From Leucoraja ocellata (taxonomy: Eukaryota), in assembly GCA_036785375.1 (NCBI GenBank), contig JAWMAR010000007.1, positions 17,174,001-17,238,000 on the forward strand: a stretch of DNA of 64,000 nucleotides. The letters run 5' to 3'. Both the position numbers and the translations under genes were made by a program. This document shows, piece after piece, positions 7,884 through 39,818 of this stretch; positions within the stretch are counted from its first letter, which is position 1, and every line of letters begins with the position of its first letter. The notes beneath the pieces are model-generated. The model had not been told where the DNA came from. It saw only the letters and a program-made list of their open reading frames with translations, and ran no database searches.

Positions 7884-10307
7884 CTAACAAAATTGGGAGA
7901 ATTCGATGTTCATGCCCCCAGGATGCAGACTCCCCAAGCGGAATATGAGGTGCTGTTCCTCCAATTTCCGGTGCTGCTCGCTGTGGCCATGGAGGAGACC
8001 CAGGACAGAGAGGTCGGAGACGGAGTGGGAGGGGGAGTTGAAGTGCTGAGCCACCGGGAGGTCAGCTTGGTTAGTGTGGACCGAGCGGAGGTGTTCGGCG
8101 AAACGATCGCCCAACCTCCGCTTGGTCTCACCGATATAGATCAGCTGACATCTAGAGCTGCGGATGCAATAGATGAGGTTGGAGGAGATGCAGGTAAACC
8201 TCTGTCGCACCTGGAACGACTGCTTGGGTCCTTGAACGGAGTCGAGGGGGGAGGTAAAGGGACAAGTGTTGCATCTCTTGCGGTTGCAAGGGAAAGTGCC
8301 CGGGGAGGGGGTGGTACGAGAGGGAAGGGAAGAATTGACAAGGGAGTTATGGAGGGAGCAGTCTTTGCAGAAGGCAGATATGGGGGGAGATGGGAAGATG
8401 TGGCGAATGGTGGGGTCACGTTGCAGGTGGCGAAACTGATGGAGGATTACTTTTTGTATGTGACGGCTGATGGGGTGAAAGGTGAGGACTAGGAGGACTC
8501 TGCCCTTGTTGCGAGTGGGGGGATGAGGAGAGAGAGCAGTGTTGCCGGGTATGGAAGAGACCCTGGTGCGAGCCTCATTTATGGTGGAGGAGGGGAAGCC
8601 CCGTTCCCTGAATAATGAGGACATTTCAGATGTTCTGGTGTGGAACGCCTCATCCGTGGAGCAGATGCGGCGTAGACGGAGGAATTGGGAGTAGGGGATG
8701 GAGTCCTTACAGGAAGCAGGGTGGGAAGAAGTGTAGTCCAGATAGCCATGGGAGTCAGTGGGTTTATAGTGGATGTCGGTCAGAAGTCTATCACCTGCAA
8801 TGGAGATAGTGAGGTGAAGGAACGGTATGGAAGTGTCGGAAATGGTCCAGGTGTATTTGAGTGTCGGATGGAAGTTAGTGGTGAAGTGGATGAAGTCAGT
8901 CAGTTGTGTGCGGGTGCAGGAGGTGGCACCAAAGCAGTCGTCGATGTAGCGGAGGTAGAGGTCGGGGATGGGGCCCTGGTATGTATTGAACAAGGATTGC
9001 TCGACGTAACCGACAAATAGGCAGGCATAGCTGGGGCCCATGCGTGTGCCCATAGCTAAGCCTTGTATTTGGAAGAAATGGGAGGAGTCGAACGTGAAGT
9101 TATTGAGGGTAAGGACCAGCTCCGCTAGGCGGAGGAGAGTGTCAGTGGCTGGGTATAGGTTACTTCTCTGGTCAAGGAAGAACCGGAGGGCTTTGAGACC
9201 ATCGTGGTGAGGGATGGAGGTGAAGAGTGACTGGACGTCCATGGTAAAGATGAGGGGGTGAGGGCCTAGAGAATGAAATGCGCGGAGACGACGGAGAGTG
9301 TCTGAGGTGTCTTGAACATAGGGAGGGAGGGATTTAACCAAGGGGGATAGGATGGAGTCAAGGTACTTGGAAATGAGTTCGGTGGGGCACGAACAGGCAG
9401 AGACAATGGGTCTTCCGGGATAGTCAGGTTTGTGGATTTTAGGGAGAAGGTAAAATCGGGCCGTGCGCGGCTGGGGAACGATGAGGTTGGAGGCTCGGTC
9501 GGGTAGGGCATTAGAGTTGATGAAGTCGGTGATGGTGCTGGAGATGGTGGCCTGGTGCTCGTCAGTGGGGTCATGGTCCAGGGGTAAGTAGGAGGAGGTG
9601 TCCGAGAGTTGGCACGTGGCCTCAGCTTTGTAGAGATCGGCGCGCCAGACTACCACGGCACCTCCCTTGTCGGCGGGTTTGATAACCCAATCTGGGTTGT
9701 TGCAGAGTGAGTCGATTGCAGAACGTTCATGGGGGGAGAGATTGGAGTGAGACAGTGGAGTGGAGAAGTTGAGGCGGTTGCTGTCACGACGGCAGTTATT
9801 GATGAAGTGTTCTAAAGCCGGAAATTGGCCACGAGGGGGGTTCCACGAGGAGGGGGTGCGTTGGAGACGGGAAAAGGGGTCATCAGTGGGGGGCGAGGAC
9901 TCCTTCCCATGGAAGTACGCTGTGAGGCAGAGGCGACGGTAGAAGAGCTCCAAATCGTGGTGGGCGCGGAATTCATTGAGGTGGGGACGGAGGGGGACAA
10001 AGGTAAGACCTCTGTTGAGGACAGACCGTTCGGTGTTGGAGTGGGGGAGGTCGGGGGGGATGGTGAACACCCGGCAGGGATGGGGGTTGGGGCCGGAGGA
10101 AGGCAGGTGGGTGGACTGGGGACGAGGCGATGTGTGGTGGGGGGGTGGTGGGTGGTCAGGGGGTGGGGGGTGAGAGGTGAGAGGGCTGTGATGTGGGTGG
10201 GGAAGAGCAGGGGTCACATAGTTAGAGGGGGTTGGGGAAGACTCAGTGGAACTGCCACTGAGGTAGACCAGGCTGGGTCGACTGGCACTAGTACCCAGTG
10301 GAGTCAA
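7884..10307 (-). CDS. Penelope-like RT / GIY-YIG endonuclease polyprotein (807 aa open)
   Basis: PADKGG, LPKIHK..PGRPIVS, GLAMGT, YLRYIDD RT motifs; CNRKRCNTC linker; NLIYCI...YIGETKR GIY-YIG; ends GMNIEF. The TTG start is probably not the real start. Confidence 0.92.
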   Translation of the reverse strand: MTPLGTSASRPSLVYLSGSSTESSPTPSNYVTPALPHPHHSPLTSHPPPPDHPPPPHHTSPRPQSTHLPSSGPNPHPCRVFTIPPDLPHSNTERSVLNRGLTFVPLRPHLNEFRAHHDLELFYRRLCLTAYFHGKESSPPTDDPFSRLQRTPSSWNPPRGQFPALEHFINNCRRDSNRLNFSTPLSHSNLSPHERSAIDSLCNNPDWVIKPADKGGAVVVWRADLYKAEATCQLSDTSSYLPLDHDPTDEHQATISSTITDFINSNALPDRASNLIVPQPRTARFYLLPKIHKPDYPGRPIVSACSCPTELISKYLDSILSPLVKSLPPYVQDTSDTLRRLRAFHSLGPHPLIFTMDVQSLFTSIPHHDGLKALRFFLDQRSNLYPATDTLLRLAELVLTLNNFTFDSSHFFQIQGLAMGTRMGPSYACLFVGYVEQSLFNTYQGPIPDLYLRYIDDCFGATSCTRTQLTDFIHFTTNFHPTLKYTWTISDTSIPFLHLTISIAGDRLLTDIHYKPTDSHGYLDYTSSHPASCKDSIPYSQFLRLRRICSTDEAFHTRTSEMSSLFRERGFPSSTINEARTRVSSIPGNTALSPHPPTRNKGRVLLVLTFHPISRHIQKVILHQFRHLQRDPTIRHIFPSPPISAFCKDCSLHNSLVNSSLPSRTTPSPGTFPCNRKRCNTCPFTSPLDSVQGPKQSFQVRQRFTCISSNLIYCIRSSRCQLIYIGETKRRLGDRFAEHLRSVHTNQADLPVAQHFNSPSHSVSDLSVLGLLHGHSEQHRKLEEQHLIFRLGSLHPGGMNIEFSQFC

Positions 10308-11040
10308 ACCCAGGAGAGTTGGGAGTAAGCAGCGTGAAGGCTTCGGGCCCAGTGCAGAGTCCAGGCTCCAGGTAAGGCGACGGCTGTGGGTTGTTGGAGG
10401 GAGGTGGAGTGGCGAGGGTCAGCGGACCCGATGTTCGGAGTCGATGGGCGGTTGAGTCAGGGTCCGCGGGCGATGTGTGGGAGGTCCCGGTGGGCGGATG
10501 GTCGGCGGGGCGGCGCGGTTCGGCCAGCCCGGGAAGGCGACAAGATGGGTTGGGTGCGGCGCGGCAGCCATGCTGGGGGAGCCTCGGTCCGGCGGCGATA
10601 TTGGGCGGGCCCAGTGCGACGGCGAAGTTCAGTGGGCCCGGTCCGGTGGCGATGCTGGGCGGGCCCAGTGGAACGGCGACATTGGGTGGGCCATGTGCGG
10701 CTGTGATGTTCTGCCGGCCCAGTGCGATGGTGTTGTCGGGTGGGCCCGGGCCGGCGATGAGGCTGGGCGGTCCCGGGGGGCGTCGAGGGTTGGAGGAATC
10801 GGCGAGGGGGAGAAAGTCCGAGTTACCGAAGCTGCGAGGCTGAGCGTCATCGGTAGGCAGGTGAGGGTCGGCGGCGGCATCGATGTGGAGGTCGGTGAAG
10901 GCAGCGTCCTGGTGAGTATTGAAGTCACTCCTCCTGGCCAAGATGACGTCGCAGGACTCGGGCAGGCGATGCAGGTCAGAGTTGGGGCCCGGAGTCTGCG
11001 GGTGTCGCGGGGTGTTTATGAAGGTCCCTCTGTGTGTCTT
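10288..11040 (-). CDS. Pro/Gly-rich upstream frame of the Penelope element (likely N-terminal extension, frameshifted)
   Basis: Open frame overlapping the RT ORF by 20 nt; GC-rich; contains ~10-aa GPPNIA.A.G repeats. Confidence 0.45.
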   Translation of the reverse strand, partial: KTHRGTFINTPRHPQTPGPNSDLHRLPESCDVILARRSDFNTHQDAAFTDLHIDAAADPHLPTDDAQPRSFGNSDFLPLADSSNPRRPPGPPSLIAGPGPPDNTIALGRQNITAAHGPPNVAVPLGPPSIATGPGPLNFAVALGPPNIAAGPRLPQHGCRAAPNPSCRLPGLAEPRRPADHPPTGTSHTSPADPDSTAHRLRTSGPLTLATPPPSNNPQPSPYLEPGLCTGPEAFTLLTPNSPGFDSTGY

Positions 11041-33691: not shown

Positions 33692-36600
33692 TTTTTTTTT
33701 TTTTTTTATTTAATTTTTTATTATTGGAGATAGGTACATGATCTATTACATCTATTACATCATTATTACATCATTTTTAAATTGATAATATTGTCAGTTA
33801 TTATTACATTGTCTCCAATACTTTTTGCATTTTTCTTCATTTTTTTTTTATAACTAGATAGGGCTAAAGGGATAGATGAAATAGAGAGAGGGAAGAAGGA
33901 AAAAGAAAACTAAAATAAAAAATAAAAAAAGGAAAAGGAGTGAAAGAGGTAGTTGAAGAAGAATGGAAAAATTTGTTAAAGTTTAAAAACATCATTCGAG
34001 ATATGTTCGTACATTTCGAAGTATAGCATTTCATCCAATCTTTAGTCCGGGTGCTAGTCAGGTTCCTGTGCTGAACTATTCTGACCCTTTAAATAATCAA
34101 TAAAAGGAGACCATGTTCCAACGAATAATTCCTGTTTATCCAACAGGGAAAATCTGATTCTTTCCATGTTTAAGGTCTCCGTCATTTCTATAATCCACAT
34201 TTTGATTGTGGGGGCCGTAGGGCCTTTCCAAAATTTTAGGATTAATTTTTTTCCTGTTATTAAACTGTAATCGATAAAGTTTCTTTGTGTTATTCTAAGT
34301 GTTTGATTTGATTCTAATATTCCGAGTATTATTAATTTTGAGTTGGGTTCCAGTTGTGTGTTGATTACTTTGGATATTATACTAAAAATATTTACCCAAA
34401 ATTTTTTAATTTTTGTACAGTTTGTAAACATGTGCGATAACGTAGCTTCTAAATGTTGACATTTATCACATATAGGTGAGATATGTTGAAAAATTTTATG
34501 TAATTTTGTTTTGGCGTAGTGTAACCTATGTATTACTTTAAATTGTATTAGAGAATGTCTCGCGTTTAGTGAACATTGATGTATGTGTTGTAGACTTTCT
34601 TCCCAAGTGTCTTTCGTTATTACCTGGTTTAATTCTTTTTCCCATGCTTGTCTGTGTAAGTCCGTCAAAGGAATGTCACTATCTAATAAGATATTATATA
34701 TATAAGATATTAATTTTTCTGTATTAGGATGCTTATTCCAACATTCATCAAGAATCTCTGGGTTTCTATTTCGAAAATTTTTAGAATTCGATTTAACATA
34801 ATCTCTGAGTTGAAGATATCTGAAATAATCATTTCCTCGAAGTCCATAAATCTGTTGCAACTCCTGAAATGTCAAAAAAGAGCCTTCTTTGTAAAGGTGT
34901 CCTATATTTTTAATTCCATTATTCTTCCATTGTGTAAAACCCCCGTCTAAACATGAAGGCTTAAACAATGAATTATTCACAATTGGAAGAAAAAGAGATA
35001 AGTTATCTAATTTTAATGTCTTTTTTAATTGTTTCCAAATTTTTATAGCACTAAATATTATAGGGTTTTCCTTATAAATTTTCTTGTTTAATTTAGACGT
35101 AGCAAATAATATCGAACCAATATCATAAGGCATACAATCTTCCCTTTCCAGTTTTAACCAGTCTGGTTGCTGGTCTATTTCTCCCAACCAGAAGTTCATA
35201 TTTTTAATATTAACTGCCCAGTAATAAAACAAAAAGTTAGGTAAAACCAAGCCTCCATTATTTTTTGATTTACACAGGTGTCTTTTGCTTATCCTATGAT
35301 TCTTATAATCCCAGATAAAATCATTAACAATAGAGTCCAATTTTTTAAAGAAGTTTTTTGCCAGGTATATCGGAATCGTCTGAAAAAGGTATAATATTTG
35401 CGGTAAAAAAATCATTTTTATGGCATTAATTTTACCAACCATTGAAATAGGTAATGTTTTCCAGTATTGGATATTCTTATGTAATTTATTCAATAATGGG
35501 GGGAAATTTGCTTTAAATAATGATGTATATATCTTAGTTACATAGATACCTAGATATTTAAATTTTTCATTTACTACTTTAAATGGGAATTGTTGTATTA
35601 TCTGTTTATTATGTTCCCTTATTGGCATAATTTCACTTTTATTCCAATTTATTCTGTATCCTGAAAGTGCACCGAATTGGTTTATTAGTTTTAATAGGTT
35701 TGGGATACTAATTTCTGGTTTTGTGATGTAAATTAATACGTCATCTGCATATAGAGAAATTTTATTCACTGTGTCTTTACTGTTATACCCATATATTTCC
35801 GGATGCCCCCTAATTCTTTCTGCAAGTGGCTCAATTGCAAGTGCAAATAGTAATGGAGATAACGGGCATCCTTGTCTACACCCTCTAGATAGACTGAATT
35901 TAGATGACAGTCTTTGGTTGGTAAGTATTCTGGCCGTAGGATTTGTGTATAGCAGTTTTATCCATGTGCAAAATTTCTCCCCTAGCTGCATCTTTTCCAT
36001 CACCGAAAATAAATAAGGCCATTCGACCTGATCAAATGCTTTTTCAGCGTCAAGTGAGATTATTGCTAAATCTTCATTAATAATTCTCTTGGTATATATA
36101 ATATTAAATAATCTTCTTAGGTTATAATATGAATACCGTTTCTGAATAAAGCCTGTTTGGTCAGGGTGTATTAATTTATTCATCACTGTACTTAATCTAC
36201 GTGCTAGTATTTTAGTTAGTATTTTCTGGTCTGTATTCAGAAGTGCAATTGCTCTGTATGATCCCGGATCTTCCGGATCTTTATCAGCTTTAGGAATAAG
36301 CGTTATTATAGATTCATTTAAGGTATCTGGGAGTTTCTGTTGGGTGTAGATATAATCATATAGTCTTTGCAAGCGTGGGCACAGTAAATCATGAAATTTC
36401 TTGTAAAATTCTGAACCTAGACCATCTGGCCCTACTGCCTTACCATTTTTAAGAGAGCCAATAGACTCCTCAATATCCTTTATCGTGATTTCCCTTTCTA
36501 ATAATTCTCTATCCTTTGAATCTAAACCTTTTAAATTACATTTTATTAAAAAATCTGCTATTCCTTCTGATTGTGCTACAGTTTTAGTTGAATAAAGGTT

Positions 36601-36701
36601 ATGATAGTATTGTAGAAATCTATCATTTATATCCTTGGGCATTTTTAATAATTCTCCTGTCTCTGTTCTAATTTTATGAATTATTTTTTCCCCTTCCAGA
36701 A
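33692..36701 (-). mobile_element. Young 5'-truncated L1/Tx1-clade LINE
   Basis: Poly(A) at the left end; perfect 14-bp TSD gggaaaacacttct (33678-33691, 36702-36715); uninterrupted ORF2. Confidence 0.92.
34054..36696 (-). CDS. L1-type ORF2 remnant (RT + C-terminal CCHC; endonuclease missing)
   Basis: GPDG, SYRAIALLN, DQTGFI, LDAEKAFD, RGCRQGCPLSP, LYADD, CDKC..HMFTNC. The first ~27 aa of the tracked ORF come from the junction and flanking DNA. Confidence 0.9.
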   Translation of the reverse strand, partial: EGEKIIHKIRTETGELLKMPKDINDRFLQYYHNLYSTKTVAQSEGIADFLIKCNLKGLDSKDRELLEREITIKDIEESIGSLKNGKAVGPDGLGSEFYKKFHDLLCPRLQRLYDYIYTQQKLPDTLNESIITLIPKADKDPEDPGSYRAIALLNTDQKILTKILARRLSTVMNKLIHPDQTGFIQKRYSYYNLRRLFNIIYTKRIINEDLAIISLDAEKAFDQVEWPYLFSVMEKMQLGEKFCTWIKLLYTNPTARILTNQRLSSKFSLSRGCRQGCPLSPLLFALAIEPLAERIRGHPEIYGYNSKDTVNKISLYADDVLIYITKPEISIPNLLKLINQFGALSGYRINWNKSEIMPIREHNKQIIQQFPFKVVNEKFKYLGIYVTKIYTSLFKANFPPLLNKLHKNIQYWKTLPISMVGKINAIKMIFLPQILYLFQTIPIYLAKNFFKKLDSIVNDFIWDYKNHRISKRHLCKSKNNGGLVLPNFLFYYWAVNIKNMNFWLGEIDQQPDWLKLEREDCMPYDIGSILFATSKLNKKIYKENPIIFSAIKIWKQLKKTLKLDNLSLFLPIVNNSLFKPSCLDGGFTQWKNNGIKNIGHLYKEGSFLTFQELQQIYGLRGNDYFRYLQLRDYVKSNSKNFRNRNPEILDECWNKHPNTEKLISYIYNILLDSDIPLTDLHRQAWEKELNQVITKDTWEESLQHIHQCSLNARHSLIQFKVIHRLHYAKTKLHKIFQHISPICDKCQHLEATLSHMFTNCTKIKKFWVNIFSIISKVINTQLEPNSKLIILGILESNQTLRITQRNFIDYSLITGKKLILKFWKGPTAPTIKMWIIEMTETLNMERIRFSLLDKQELFVGTWSPFIDYLKGQNSSAQEPD

Positions 36702-37419
36702 GGGAAAACACTTCTGTTAAGTAAAGAAACATTATCCCCAGGTAAAGTAAATACCTTTGTTGAGGCTCCTGCAACATAATTGTATCCCATCATTTCCCCA
36801 ACCAATCCCAAGCATGCATTTGCAACAGGGCCTAACTCCTGCAAAATCTCATACATATTAACAATTAAAGGCCATCTGGACATCAACCCCTTCCCAGGCC
36901 ACAGACTTTCTGGTCTTGCAGATTTTTGCAAAAGATGCCAAGCAGGTTTTATAGATCTCTTAAACATAAATCCTCCATTTTGTCAAGTACCCCCAAATGT
37001 CTGATATTAACACTAACAATATTGTCATAAATCTACTGTGCACTTTTTTCAGCTTAACAACATCCTTCATATAGAAGGGTAACTGAGTCTGAGCACAATA
37101 CTACAAATGCGACCTCGCCAACGTCTTGTACAACTGTAACATGACATCCCAATTTCTATACTCAATACCCTGACTAATGATGGCCAGTGTACCGAAGGTC
37201 TTCTTGACCACCCTCTCTACCTGTGGCACCAAGTTCAGAGAACAATGCATCGGCACTCCTAGATCCCTCTGCTCAACAACACTCGCCCCAGGGCCCTGCC
37301 ATTCGCAGTGAAACTCCTGCCGTAGCCTGACTTCTCAAAATGCACCTCCCACTTATCTGCATCAAATTCCATTGACCATTCTTCATCCCACTTGTCCAGT
37401 TGATCAAGTTGCTTAGCGC

Positions 37420-37725: not shown

Positions 37726-38921
37726 GATCCTACTATAATTTTTGATAACCATCTTTGCTATAAACGATACCACCCACTTTAGTGTCATCTGCAAACTTTC
37801 TAATCATGCCTTCTTTATTTTCATACAAATCATTGATATAAACCACACACAGCATTGGGCCCAGAACCAACCCCCTGAGGCACACCACTCGTCACAGACC
37901 TCCAGTCAAATAAACAACTTTCCACCATCACTCTCTGCTTCCTTCCTTGAAGTCAATTCTCTATCCAGTCGGCTAGCTCTCTCTGGATTCCATGCAATCT
38001 AACCTTCCAGAGCAGCATACCATGCGAAACATCAAATGCCTTGTTGAAGTTCAAATAGAAAATGTCTACAGTTTTGCACCCATCAACCTTTTTGGTTACT
38101 TCAAAAAACTCAATCAGATTTGTAAGACATGTTCTCCCACATAAAAAACAATGCTGACTGTCCCTAATCAGCCCATGTCTCTCCAAATATCCTAACCCTC
38201 AGAATCCTCCCTAGAAGTTTAGTTTAGTTTATTTTCGTCATGTTTTCCAAGGTACAGTGAAAAACTTTTGTGGAGTGCTGTGCTATCCAGTCAAAGAAAA
38301 GACTATACATGATTACAATCAAGCCGTCCACAGTGTACATATAAAGGATAAAGAACACCAACAATGCAAAATAAAGTTCAACTAAAGATAGCTCAAAGGT
38401 CTCCAATGAATAGATCAGATGTCAGGAATACACTCTGGTTGGTGAGCGAACAGTTCAGTTGCTTGATAACAGATGGGGGAAAACTTTCCCTGAATCTGGA
38501 CCTGAAACTGTAACTCCCAGACTTTGTCTTGCAGCCCTTCTTAAATAGGGGCACAACATTAGCCACCCTCCAGTCTTGCGGCACCTCACCTGTGTGTAAT
38601 GATAATTCATATATCTCAGCCAGGCCTGCAATTTCTTCTCTAACTTCCCATGCTGTCTTTGGATATATCTGATCATTTGACTTTATCAGAACTTGATTCT
38701 TAGCCTTATATGTCTTGGCTATTCTAGATATTGTGACAGCAACTGCTTCCATTAAGTGTGACCCAGAAACCAACCATCCTCTAGTTCAGTGTTCCCAGAC
38801 TTTTTCGGGACACCATCCCCTTGGTTCCATAAACCCATCCCCCTTGCCCGCCTACCCTAGCCTATAAAAAACATTATTCACAATAGCGATTTGCACAACC
38901 CCGAAGGTCAACCTTAGTGGT

Positions 38922-39052
38922 CTTCTTGCGTATGACGTGCACAGCCTATAGTTGTAGGTCAAGCTGTTCTATTTGATCTTGTTTGTGCACGTCGGGTTGA
39001 TTGCATTAGTCGAAACAGGGCGGACCACGTGAAGGTTGCAATCTCCCACCCC
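38922..39052 (-). mobile_element. Ribozyme-headed short retroposon, full-length copy
   Basis: HDV-like head, GACGTGCACA/TGTGCACGTC stem, CAAGAAG tail; TSD aaccttagtggt (38910-38921) / aacattagtggt (39053-39064). Confidence 0.85.
38999..39052 (-). ncRNA. Minimal HDV-like self-cleaving ribozyme (54 nt)
   Basis: GGGGUGG-GA-GAUUGCA-ACC-UUCACGU-GGU-CCGCCCU-G-UUUCGA-CUAA-UGCAAUC: 7-bp P1 with G1.U wobble, perfect 7-bp P2, 3-bp P3, 7-nt L3, single C-G P1.1, and J4/2 C-N-A-A. Confidence 0.85.
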
Positions 39053-39818
39053 AACATTAGTGGTACATATGTAGTACTATTTACTAACATTTCTAATGAA
39101 CTAAAATACTGCTTTCGTGACAATTATAAGCGTGAGTATGCTAACTACACCATTTAGCCTATTGCCTCAATAATTATGCATGAATCATATGCAAGTAATA
39201 ACATTGAAAAGTTCCAAGAAATACTATTCAGCAAAACAGTGTGCGCTTTTAGAGATGGTCAGTGGAGTGCACAGCAGAAGATGCTGCTTGACCCACTGAG
39301 TTGCTCCAGTATTTTGTTTCTCTCTACAACAGAACAATCCCTCCGCAAGCATGTCAAGTGTATACTGGCACCTCTCTTGCCCAATGCCACACCCACCTCC
39401 GGTATCTCACTACCATCCCTTGCCCGATATGTAGCCAAACTGAATCCTATCTGCCTGCACTTAATCCATTGCCCCGAAAAATGACCAGAGCAAAACAATC
39501 CCAAGAAGCTAAAAGAGTGCCAGTCACTGACCTTAGGGAAAAGAGGGCTGATATTGCTTATTCTGGTTGAGGCAGATAGGATATAAACATTTAAGAGACT
39601 TTTGGATAAACATATGAATATGCATGTAATGGAGGGTTATGGATTATGTGCAGGCAGCTAAGATTTAGTCTTAGCACCATGTTTGGGGCAGACATCATGG
39701 GCAGAAAAGCCCGTTCCTCTGCTGTACTGTTCTATTTATGCCATTCTTTACCACCTTATACACTCACGTTGTCACTTTCAGCGAGCTATATATATGCACC
39801 CCAACATACTTCTGTATT

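Follow-up and report, generated by a model that had tools for sequence, protein, structure and literature searches.

Sequence features of the insertion

An insertion of 131 nt, bounded by a 12-bp TSD, lies on the minus strand of the window, which is the whole stretch of 64,000 nucleotides of Leucoraja ocellata DNA analyzed here (Table 1). All letters described in the original prediction are found at their positions, the TSD with its one mismatch is confirmed, and the HDV-type double pseudoknot proposed for the head is borne out by a hand-written HDV descriptor, which is matched with 7/7 P1, 7/7 P2 and 3/3 P3 pairs. This site is the sole match of the descriptor on both window strands, and when the letters of the head were shuffled 20,000 times, no shuffle passed it. 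P4 is replaced by a 6-nt loop, as in minimal HDV-like ribozymes, and the L3 sequence is the same as that of the Rfam CPEB3 consensus line. An Rfam scan of the window gave no family matches at the element, its head included, and no tRNA-type gene was found within 38500-39500. A theta ribozyme was considered and ruled out, given the absence of a tRNA in that interval and the eukaryotic nature of the repeat. The plain single-strand fold has a z of -1.08, in a model that leaves out the pseudoknot and hence says little about it.

Table 1. Parts of the insertion and its flanks, in window positions
Feature	Positions	Strand	Remarks
5' TSD copy	39053-39064	-	12 bp; last base T directly precedes G1
3' TSD copy	38910-38921	-	one mismatch vs 5' copy
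Insertion	38922-39052	-	131 nt
G1	39052	-	first base of element
P4-less HDV-like ribozyme fold (predicted), 54 nt	38999-39052	-	descriptor match, cross-family pairs
P1	39046-39052 with 39017-39023	-	ribozyme fold
P2	39037-39043 with 38999-39005	-	ribozyme fold
P3	39034-39036 with 39024-39026	-	ribozyme fold
L3	39027-39033	-	ribozyme fold
P1.1 G	39016	-	single-pair P1.1
L4, 6 nt	39010-39015	-	ribozyme fold
J4/2	39006-39009	-	ribozyme fold
C44, catalytic-cytosine position	39009	-	C in 68/72 full-length copies
ATG inside J4/2-P2	39004-39006	-	in parent LINE, in frame with next ATG of APE ORF and 60 nt before it
Part from parent LINE 5' end (nt 1-74)	38979-39052	-	93% to L121, 98.6% to L124
5' arm of end-to-end stem	38984-38993	-	5 nt behind ribozyme; source is LINE 5' end
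Deletion junction with short local duplication	38964-38978	-	differs between subfamilies; loose ends at 38979 in public runs
Part from parent LINE 3' end (last ORF codons, stop, 3' UTR, tail)	38922-38963	-	81-88% to L122-L124
3' arm of end-to-end stem	38934-38943	-	ends directly before conserved A(C/T)ACG-like motif
Conserved 3' motif and (AAG)n tail	38922-38933	-	family comparison; tail end at 38922

Other retroelements occupy the same window. A stop-free frame of 911 aa with an RT domain (34054-36789, minus strand), by eye an L1/Tx1-like ORF2, follows the element downstream at about 2 kb, in the same orientation. A second stop-free frame of 844 aa (7884-10418, minus strand) combines an RT domain with a C-terminus that is GIY-YIG-like by eye, and is likely a Penelope-like element. 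The best named match of a neighboring CR1-like fragment is a Mobula protein (81%).

Copies in the genome

The genome searched comprises 3.44 Gb, in which a 19-nt tail pattern has 4209 exact matches and a 34-nt ribozyme-core pattern has 3568, with 0 matches for the reversed control of either. From the overlap of the two match lists on contigs C1-C2, family size is roughly estimated at 24,000-27,000 copies. Ninety tail matches, the first in the list of 4209 and picked without regard to the head, comprise 84 short head-tail units, 2 LINE fragments and 4 tails only. Among the 84 head-bearing copies, the 5' start falls exactly on G1 in 57, within 1 nt of it in 65 and within 2 nt in 72, and 12 copies are cut further inside the head; the pile-up of 5' ends at G1 that had been anticipated genome-wide is thus seen in copies selected by their tails. 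Copies were not found to extend routinely upstream of G1: the aligned upstream columns of 65 full-length copies hold no shared sequence except T (35) or C (15) at -1. A TSD was detected in 54 of these 65, measuring 10-12 bp in 43 of the 54. Some of the copies are duplicated pairs, so that the counts are not all independent. The element has been amplified as a unit with TSDs and a simple-repeat tail, as a bipartite non-autonomous LINE, and the retroposon family with TSDs and an AAG tail that was proposed from a single copy exists in thousands of copies.

The flanks of the 65 full-length copies show some target preference, with a pyrimidine at -1 in 50 and an enrichment of T at the positions 13-14 nt before G1. 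At two places on contig C1 (L325 and L326, 19.26 Mb and 19.41-19.43 Mb), a copy of the element lies inside a unit of about 1.9-2 kb that is repeated at least seven times at each place. The tandem matches on C1 were considered as a second family, and this was rejected in favor of one insertion inside a repeated unit of about 1.9 kb.

In all eight public runs, loose ends pile up at 39052-39054 and 38921; these runs consist of contigs and are silent on transcript start, strand, level or cleavage, and they yielded no clean empty site. Both junctions of the insertion are present in the runs of organisms C and E, so the insertion is old. The family as a whole is old and probably no longer mobile.

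The parent LINE and its probable clade

One tail match, L044, runs on into coding sequence, and a walk upstream from it recovered 5'-truncated and near-full LINE copies that are about 84-87% alike in long pairs. In L121, the head of the element (nt 1-74, 93%) comes first and APE and RT follow, and the 3' ends of the LINE family match the tail of the element (nt 90-131, 81-88%). The element is made up of two ends of a single-ORF APE-RT LINE of the same genome, 74 nt from its start and ~42 nt from its end. An autonomous-type LINE sharing both head and tail, for which the original prediction had called, is therefore present, in copies with broken frames (about 3.2 kb in the long copies read). The closest intact protein homolog, P0001 (1019 aa, 67% in the APE part), contains APE and RT without RNase H, and a more distant homolog, P0078, carries RNase H.

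Judged from these sequence matches, the element is an internal-deletion derivative (SIDE) and not a SINE that acquired a ribozyme. A SINE in the strict sense has a tRNA, 5S or 7SL head with a Pol III promoter, and the head here is a LINE 5' end; the claim that it is not tRNA-derived holds, and the description as a SINE headed by a ribozyme gives way to that of a SIDE. Because the P4-less head is already present in the parent, the ribozyme was inherited by the short element. Of 30 long-LINE heads, only about 9 by eye extend to G1, and the others end 1-15 nt inside it. The in-frame ATG inside the fold is kept in all 21 that were scored of 26 LINE heads. Such an ATG inside J4/2-P2 occurs in two families, the parent LINE and L158 (L158:77-79); in V5 and L201 the ATG by eye either lies in another frame or runs into a stop, so the feature is not universal. 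At L124:2572-2652 (contig C305, minus-strand reading), head nt 5-74 are inverted beside the body, as in twin-priming insertions.

The parent has a compact single ORF with APE and RT and no RNase H, judging from P0001 and the broken ~3.2-kb copies. RTE elements are likewise single-ORF APE-RT LINEs without RNase H, and the layout is common to both clades. Vingi has been described as a compact single-ORF sister clade of Ingi without RNase H (PMC13708176). The link that decides for Vingi is provided by the heads of relatives. The 5' end of Vingi-2_Gav is printed in the supplement of Kojima 2018 (PMC5786205), and by eye 34 of its first 36 printed bases agree with the head of L181; the V2 head likewise matches it by eye. 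In an RT tree, in which named Vingi or RTE proteins are absent, the parent groups with all ribozyme-headed relatives (support 91/78). L350, a contig from a prokaryotic genome, was used in this tree alone; six prokaryotic-genome contigs carry fragments, which are probably contamination, no relatives were found on viral contigs, and cluster look-ups returned no names of clades. The parent LINE is likely Vingi-type rather than RTE. The tail is shared with this Vingi-like LINE, in a comparison made without an RTE reference, and the RTE-like partner originally proposed is, as far as these comparisons reach, replaced by a LINE whose relatives have heads matching the Vingi-2_Gav 5' end.

Conservation of the fold across families

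Eighty related loci from metagenomes (700,202 bases) were scanned on both strands with the descriptor, giving five strict and nine relaxed hits in six families. All nine relaxed hits are in sense orientation and precede the protein match by 157-384 nt. C is the first base of J4/2 in 9/9, as the descriptor demands. No hit was obtained in 20 of the 29 related loci with an N-terminal match, many of which are cut or decayed, and loci of the skate genome itself (976,250 bases) gave one unrelated hit; this genome holds further LINE families with their own heads. Altogether, in eleven related LINE families an HDV-type fold with covariation closely precedes the ORF. Across the 12 families, pairing is kept at 83/84 P1, 70/72 P2 and 36/36 P3 positions, and several pair types occur at P1 positions 5-7, in all six scored P2 columns and at P3 positions 1 and 3. 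The P1/P2 covariation that the prediction had led one to look for is thus observed, in counts that use anchors chosen by the analyst and are hence partly circular, so it is the position of the hits upstream of the ORF that provides the non-circular evidence.

Within the SIDE family itself, covariation consists of a one-sided U-A/U.G change only. The subfamily-variable head positions 8, 32 and 45 are structure-neutral, being located in J1/2, in that U-A/U.G pair and at the free second base of J4/2. The distance from P1.1 to C44 is 6 nt here vs 15-41 nt in the other 11 families, and P4 is absent in this family alone; since all 11 others have a long P4, its loss could be decay. The curated Rfam HDV-type models, proposed as a check on the fold, do not match this head and do match P4-bearing relatives. 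Self-cleavage 5' of G1 is predicted and considered likely.

Two further heads were seen among the relatives. L160 has by eye a possible HDV-like head at about 420-580, with a long hairpin in the P3/L3 region, that the descriptor missed. Family V7 (L385, L387, L390-L409, mostly small contigs) is a Vingi-like 5' fragment with a decaying head, amplified in a satellite-like manner at a spacing of about 1.8 kb.

A probable stem between the two ends

The hairpin behind the ribozyme had been read as a purely 3' element. Its 5' arm derives from the 5' part of the LINE and its 3' arm from the 3' part, which places the two arms about 3 kb from each other in the parent. The perfect 10-bp stem is present in this copy, although it rests on a base change seen sporadically in the family. 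GTC tails number 191 vs 4209 for GCC, and the GTC form is unlinked to the GA 5' arm (2/21 scored of 30 loci, one of the two being this copy). Family-wide, the stem is an 8-bp core, extended to 10 bp in the commonest subfamily (GG arm, 51/84 copies). The GA/TC and GG/CC variants were tested as a compensatory pair and failed, no compensatory change was found inside the stem of the SIDE family, and the stem contains a 6-nt palindrome.

The full-length relatives show a comparable complementarity: the segment that begins 3-5 nt past the ribozyme can pair with the one that ends just before the conserved A(C/T)ACG-like motif and the tail, with 13 bp paired in L158, 11/12 in L181 and 7/8 in L176. Windows of 25 and 30 nt were fixed after these three pairings had been seen. 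When own ends were compared with swapped ends in the seven discovery families, the own arrangement ranked 1 and 2 of 5040 on two measures; first, wider windows had given rank 7 of 5040, with single-family shuffles significant in only 3/7. In five held-out families fetched afterwards and analyzed with the same windows, the rank was 1 of 120 on both measures, and it spans 1-17 of 120 across 20 window pairs. For four families in the test, the two ends were taken from different copies. When a strict register without gaps is imposed, at least 8/10 pairs are formed in 5 of 12 own vs 6 of 132 swapped pairs; the helix of V2 is perfect over 9 bp in the predicted register, and L165, L220, L177, L176, V5, V6 and V8 fall below 8/10. 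L165, L220 and V5 show weak pairing or none, V5 being no better than background, and bulges are needed in V6, V8 and L177. The alligator element SINE2-1_AMi, made of a tRNA, a Vingi 5' part and an unknown 3' part (PMC5786205), has by eye a hairpin of 5 bp that starts 4 nt after the Vingi head and is followed directly by the same 3' motif. The end-to-end stem is probably real and recurrent in related LINEs, as far as sequence comparison can indicate, and a role in template recognition is held with less confidence than the stem itself.

Similarity to the CPEB3 ribozyme

Sister LINE heads are close to the mammalian CPEB3 ribozyme. The head of L181 scores 55.6 bits against the Rfam CPEB3 model (RF00622), for which the cut-off is 35. 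The model has 56 matches above the cut-off in this genome, of 59 scored, and 0 in 14 control genomes, and a Vingi-like frame follows 17 of the 30 CPEB3-matching loci that were fetched. L181, V2, L165 and L168 fall in one well-supported RT group. In L370 (1510-1575) and L377 (1511-1580), old heads have P4 arms that are also CPEB3-consensus-like, which makes them the best candidates here for a comparison with CPEB3. A term search of the available text of a CPEB3 evolution paper (PMC8233481) found neither origin nor transposons mentioned, and the literature search on the origin of the CPEB3 ribozyme returned nothing on a Vingi-head source, so that novelty is provisional; that retrotransposition spreads HDV-like ribozymes has already been proposed in general terms (PMC8256844).

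Proposed mechanism and alternative explanations

The explanation that best fits the whole, with a probability of about 0.72, is a two-ended Vingi-type derivative with a self-cutting head and a stem that marks the RNA for the protein of the parent. Read-through transcription from the host would produce an RNA containing the element, and its first 54 bases would cut this RNA free of the host transcript at G1, after which the pseudoknot would protect the uncapped 5' end. The two RNA ends would likely pair into the stem, the LINE protein would bind stem and 3' motif, and reverse transcription primed by the target at the (AAG)n tail would leave TSDs of 10-12 bp.

Transcription starting at G1 would explain the 5' pile-up equally well if the head were mainly an internal promoter like Pr77 of L1Tc, with the ribozyme second or minor. 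The 77-nt head of L1Tc combines promoter and ribozyme (PMC8256844; PMC3383444), and Vingi is the sister clade of Ingi (PMC13708176). However, it is the fold and not the sequence that is kept across families, and a tRNA-type gene is absent. Moreover, the nine copies with an extra base between TSD and G1 (T in 3, C in 3, A in 2 and G in 1, including duplicated pairs) lack the excess of G that a copied cap might give, a weak point in the same direction, and a head that is mainly a promoter is considered improbable. Another suggestion starts from the absence of P4, missing only in this family of 12, and from the single-pair P1.1: the head may no longer cleave usefully and may be kept as a 5' protector, a protein-binding site or a translation-initiation element. 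The in-frame ATG inside the fold in the parent and L158, together with the IRES-like roles proposed for R2 and L1Tc ribozymes (PMC6765202), fits such a function. Yet HDV-like ribozymes that lack P4 show activity in vitro (PMC10879173), C44 and all helices are preserved across several subfamilies of the non-coding derivative, and the 5' end at G1 still has to be set in some way; little probability is given to a head that has ceased to cut.

The ribozyme and the Vingi origin could both be retained with an incidental hairpin, the protein recognizing the 3' end only, as in R2 SIDEs, which were concluded to need just the ribozyme and the 3' UTR (PMC3414825). The palindrome in the stem, the lack of compensatory change within the family and the seven of 12 families below 8/10 in the strict register all favor this possibility. 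The rank of the held-out families speaks against it, as do the perfect 9-bp (V2) and 13-bp (L158) helices formed in the same register by unrelated sequences, and the derivative keeps 20 nt past the ribozyme with the arm included; an incidental hairpin is regarded as unlikely, if still a serious contender. Far less can be said for mobilization of a SINE by an RTE-clade LINE, as first proposed. The RTE layout is the same, and RTE also makes bipartite derivatives with predicted ribozymes (PMC5786205), but the parent has been found, its relatives L181 and V2 start with Vingi-2_Gav-matching heads, and its protein matches include the RNase H-bearing P0078, as expected of an Ingi-type sister. This reading is very improbable.

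The preferred explanation, a self-cutting Vingi-type derivative marked by its stem, can tentatively be extended to the whole clade, at somewhat less than even odds. In Vingi, the ribozyme might make the 5' end and the ends might then clasp, licensing only full-length cleaved RNA; if so, Vingi parasites must keep both ends. The SIDE family described here would then carry the ribozyme reduced to its smallest size, without P4, in a vertebrate, and the CPEB3 ribozyme of mammals would be a domesticated Vingi head.

Comparison with known systems

Ribozyme-headed internal-deletion derivatives are established for R2 and for L1Tc/ingi (PMC3414825; PMC4035085), and Vingi is absent from the clades with ribozymes listed in Kojima 2018 (PMC5786205). 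In the text portions retrieved, a literature search on HDV-like ribozymes and Vingi found no paper linking the two, the nearest being a review that ties the ribozyme to R2, and a search on HDV-like ribozymes and sharks found an R2 survey alone. Searches on minimal HDV-like forms in vertebrate LINE heads and on long-range pairing of the ends of such LINEs found nothing, so novelty is provisional on both points, pending Repbase, Dfam and patents. If the prediction holds, self-cleaving heads would extend to a LINE clade that is not on the published list. The end-to-end stem would also offer a testable answer to the question left unanswered in Kojima 2018 of why only some LINE clades yield two-ended derivatives, and it bears on Vingi-1 gene-insertion platforms, in which donor RNAs carry both Vingi UTRs (PMC13708176).

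The R2 SIDEs of Drosophila are, like this element, short internally deleted LINE derivatives with an HDV-like ribozyme head and mostly precise 5' junctions (PMC3414825). Their ribozyme has been shown to cleave, whereas cleavage is here predicted from the fold. They are also rDNA-specific and about 500 nt long, with a full P4 and a long J1/2, and are said to need no more than ribozyme and 3' UTR (PMC3414825), whereas the present element is dispersed, 131 nt long, P4-less, APE-type and provided with an end-to-end stem. NARTc/L1Tc, RIME/ingi and SIDERs (PMC4035085; PMC3383444) are bipartite derivatives of the Ingi group that share their ribozyme head with the parent in the same manner; the trypanosomatid heads measure 77 nt, possess P4 and have proven promoter activity, in contrast to the 54-nt fold in a vertebrate host. 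Bipartite, internally deleted derivatives of Vingi are themselves already known, as the non-autonomous Vingi-1_EE derivatives of the hedgehog (PMC5786205).

With minimal HDV-like and theta ribozymes, the head shares the absence of P4, a short J1/2 and L4, and a catalytic C that comes first in J4/2 (PMC10879173). Nearly 99% of these minimal forms are found in phages, many beside tRNAs, in a search that also covered human, mouse and protist genomes, and their origin is called undetermined in that work (PMC10879173). Here, such a form would head a vertebrate retrotransposon present in thousands of copies, which would bring a so far almost phage-only ribozyme into a vertebrate repeat whose natural variants number in the thousands. 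The CPEB3 ribozyme (RF00622) is a single conserved intronic copy with P4; it shares the L3 sequence with this P4-less head, which itself does not match RF00622, and the heads of sister LINEs, which exceed the Rfam cut-off, are a concrete candidate source for it.
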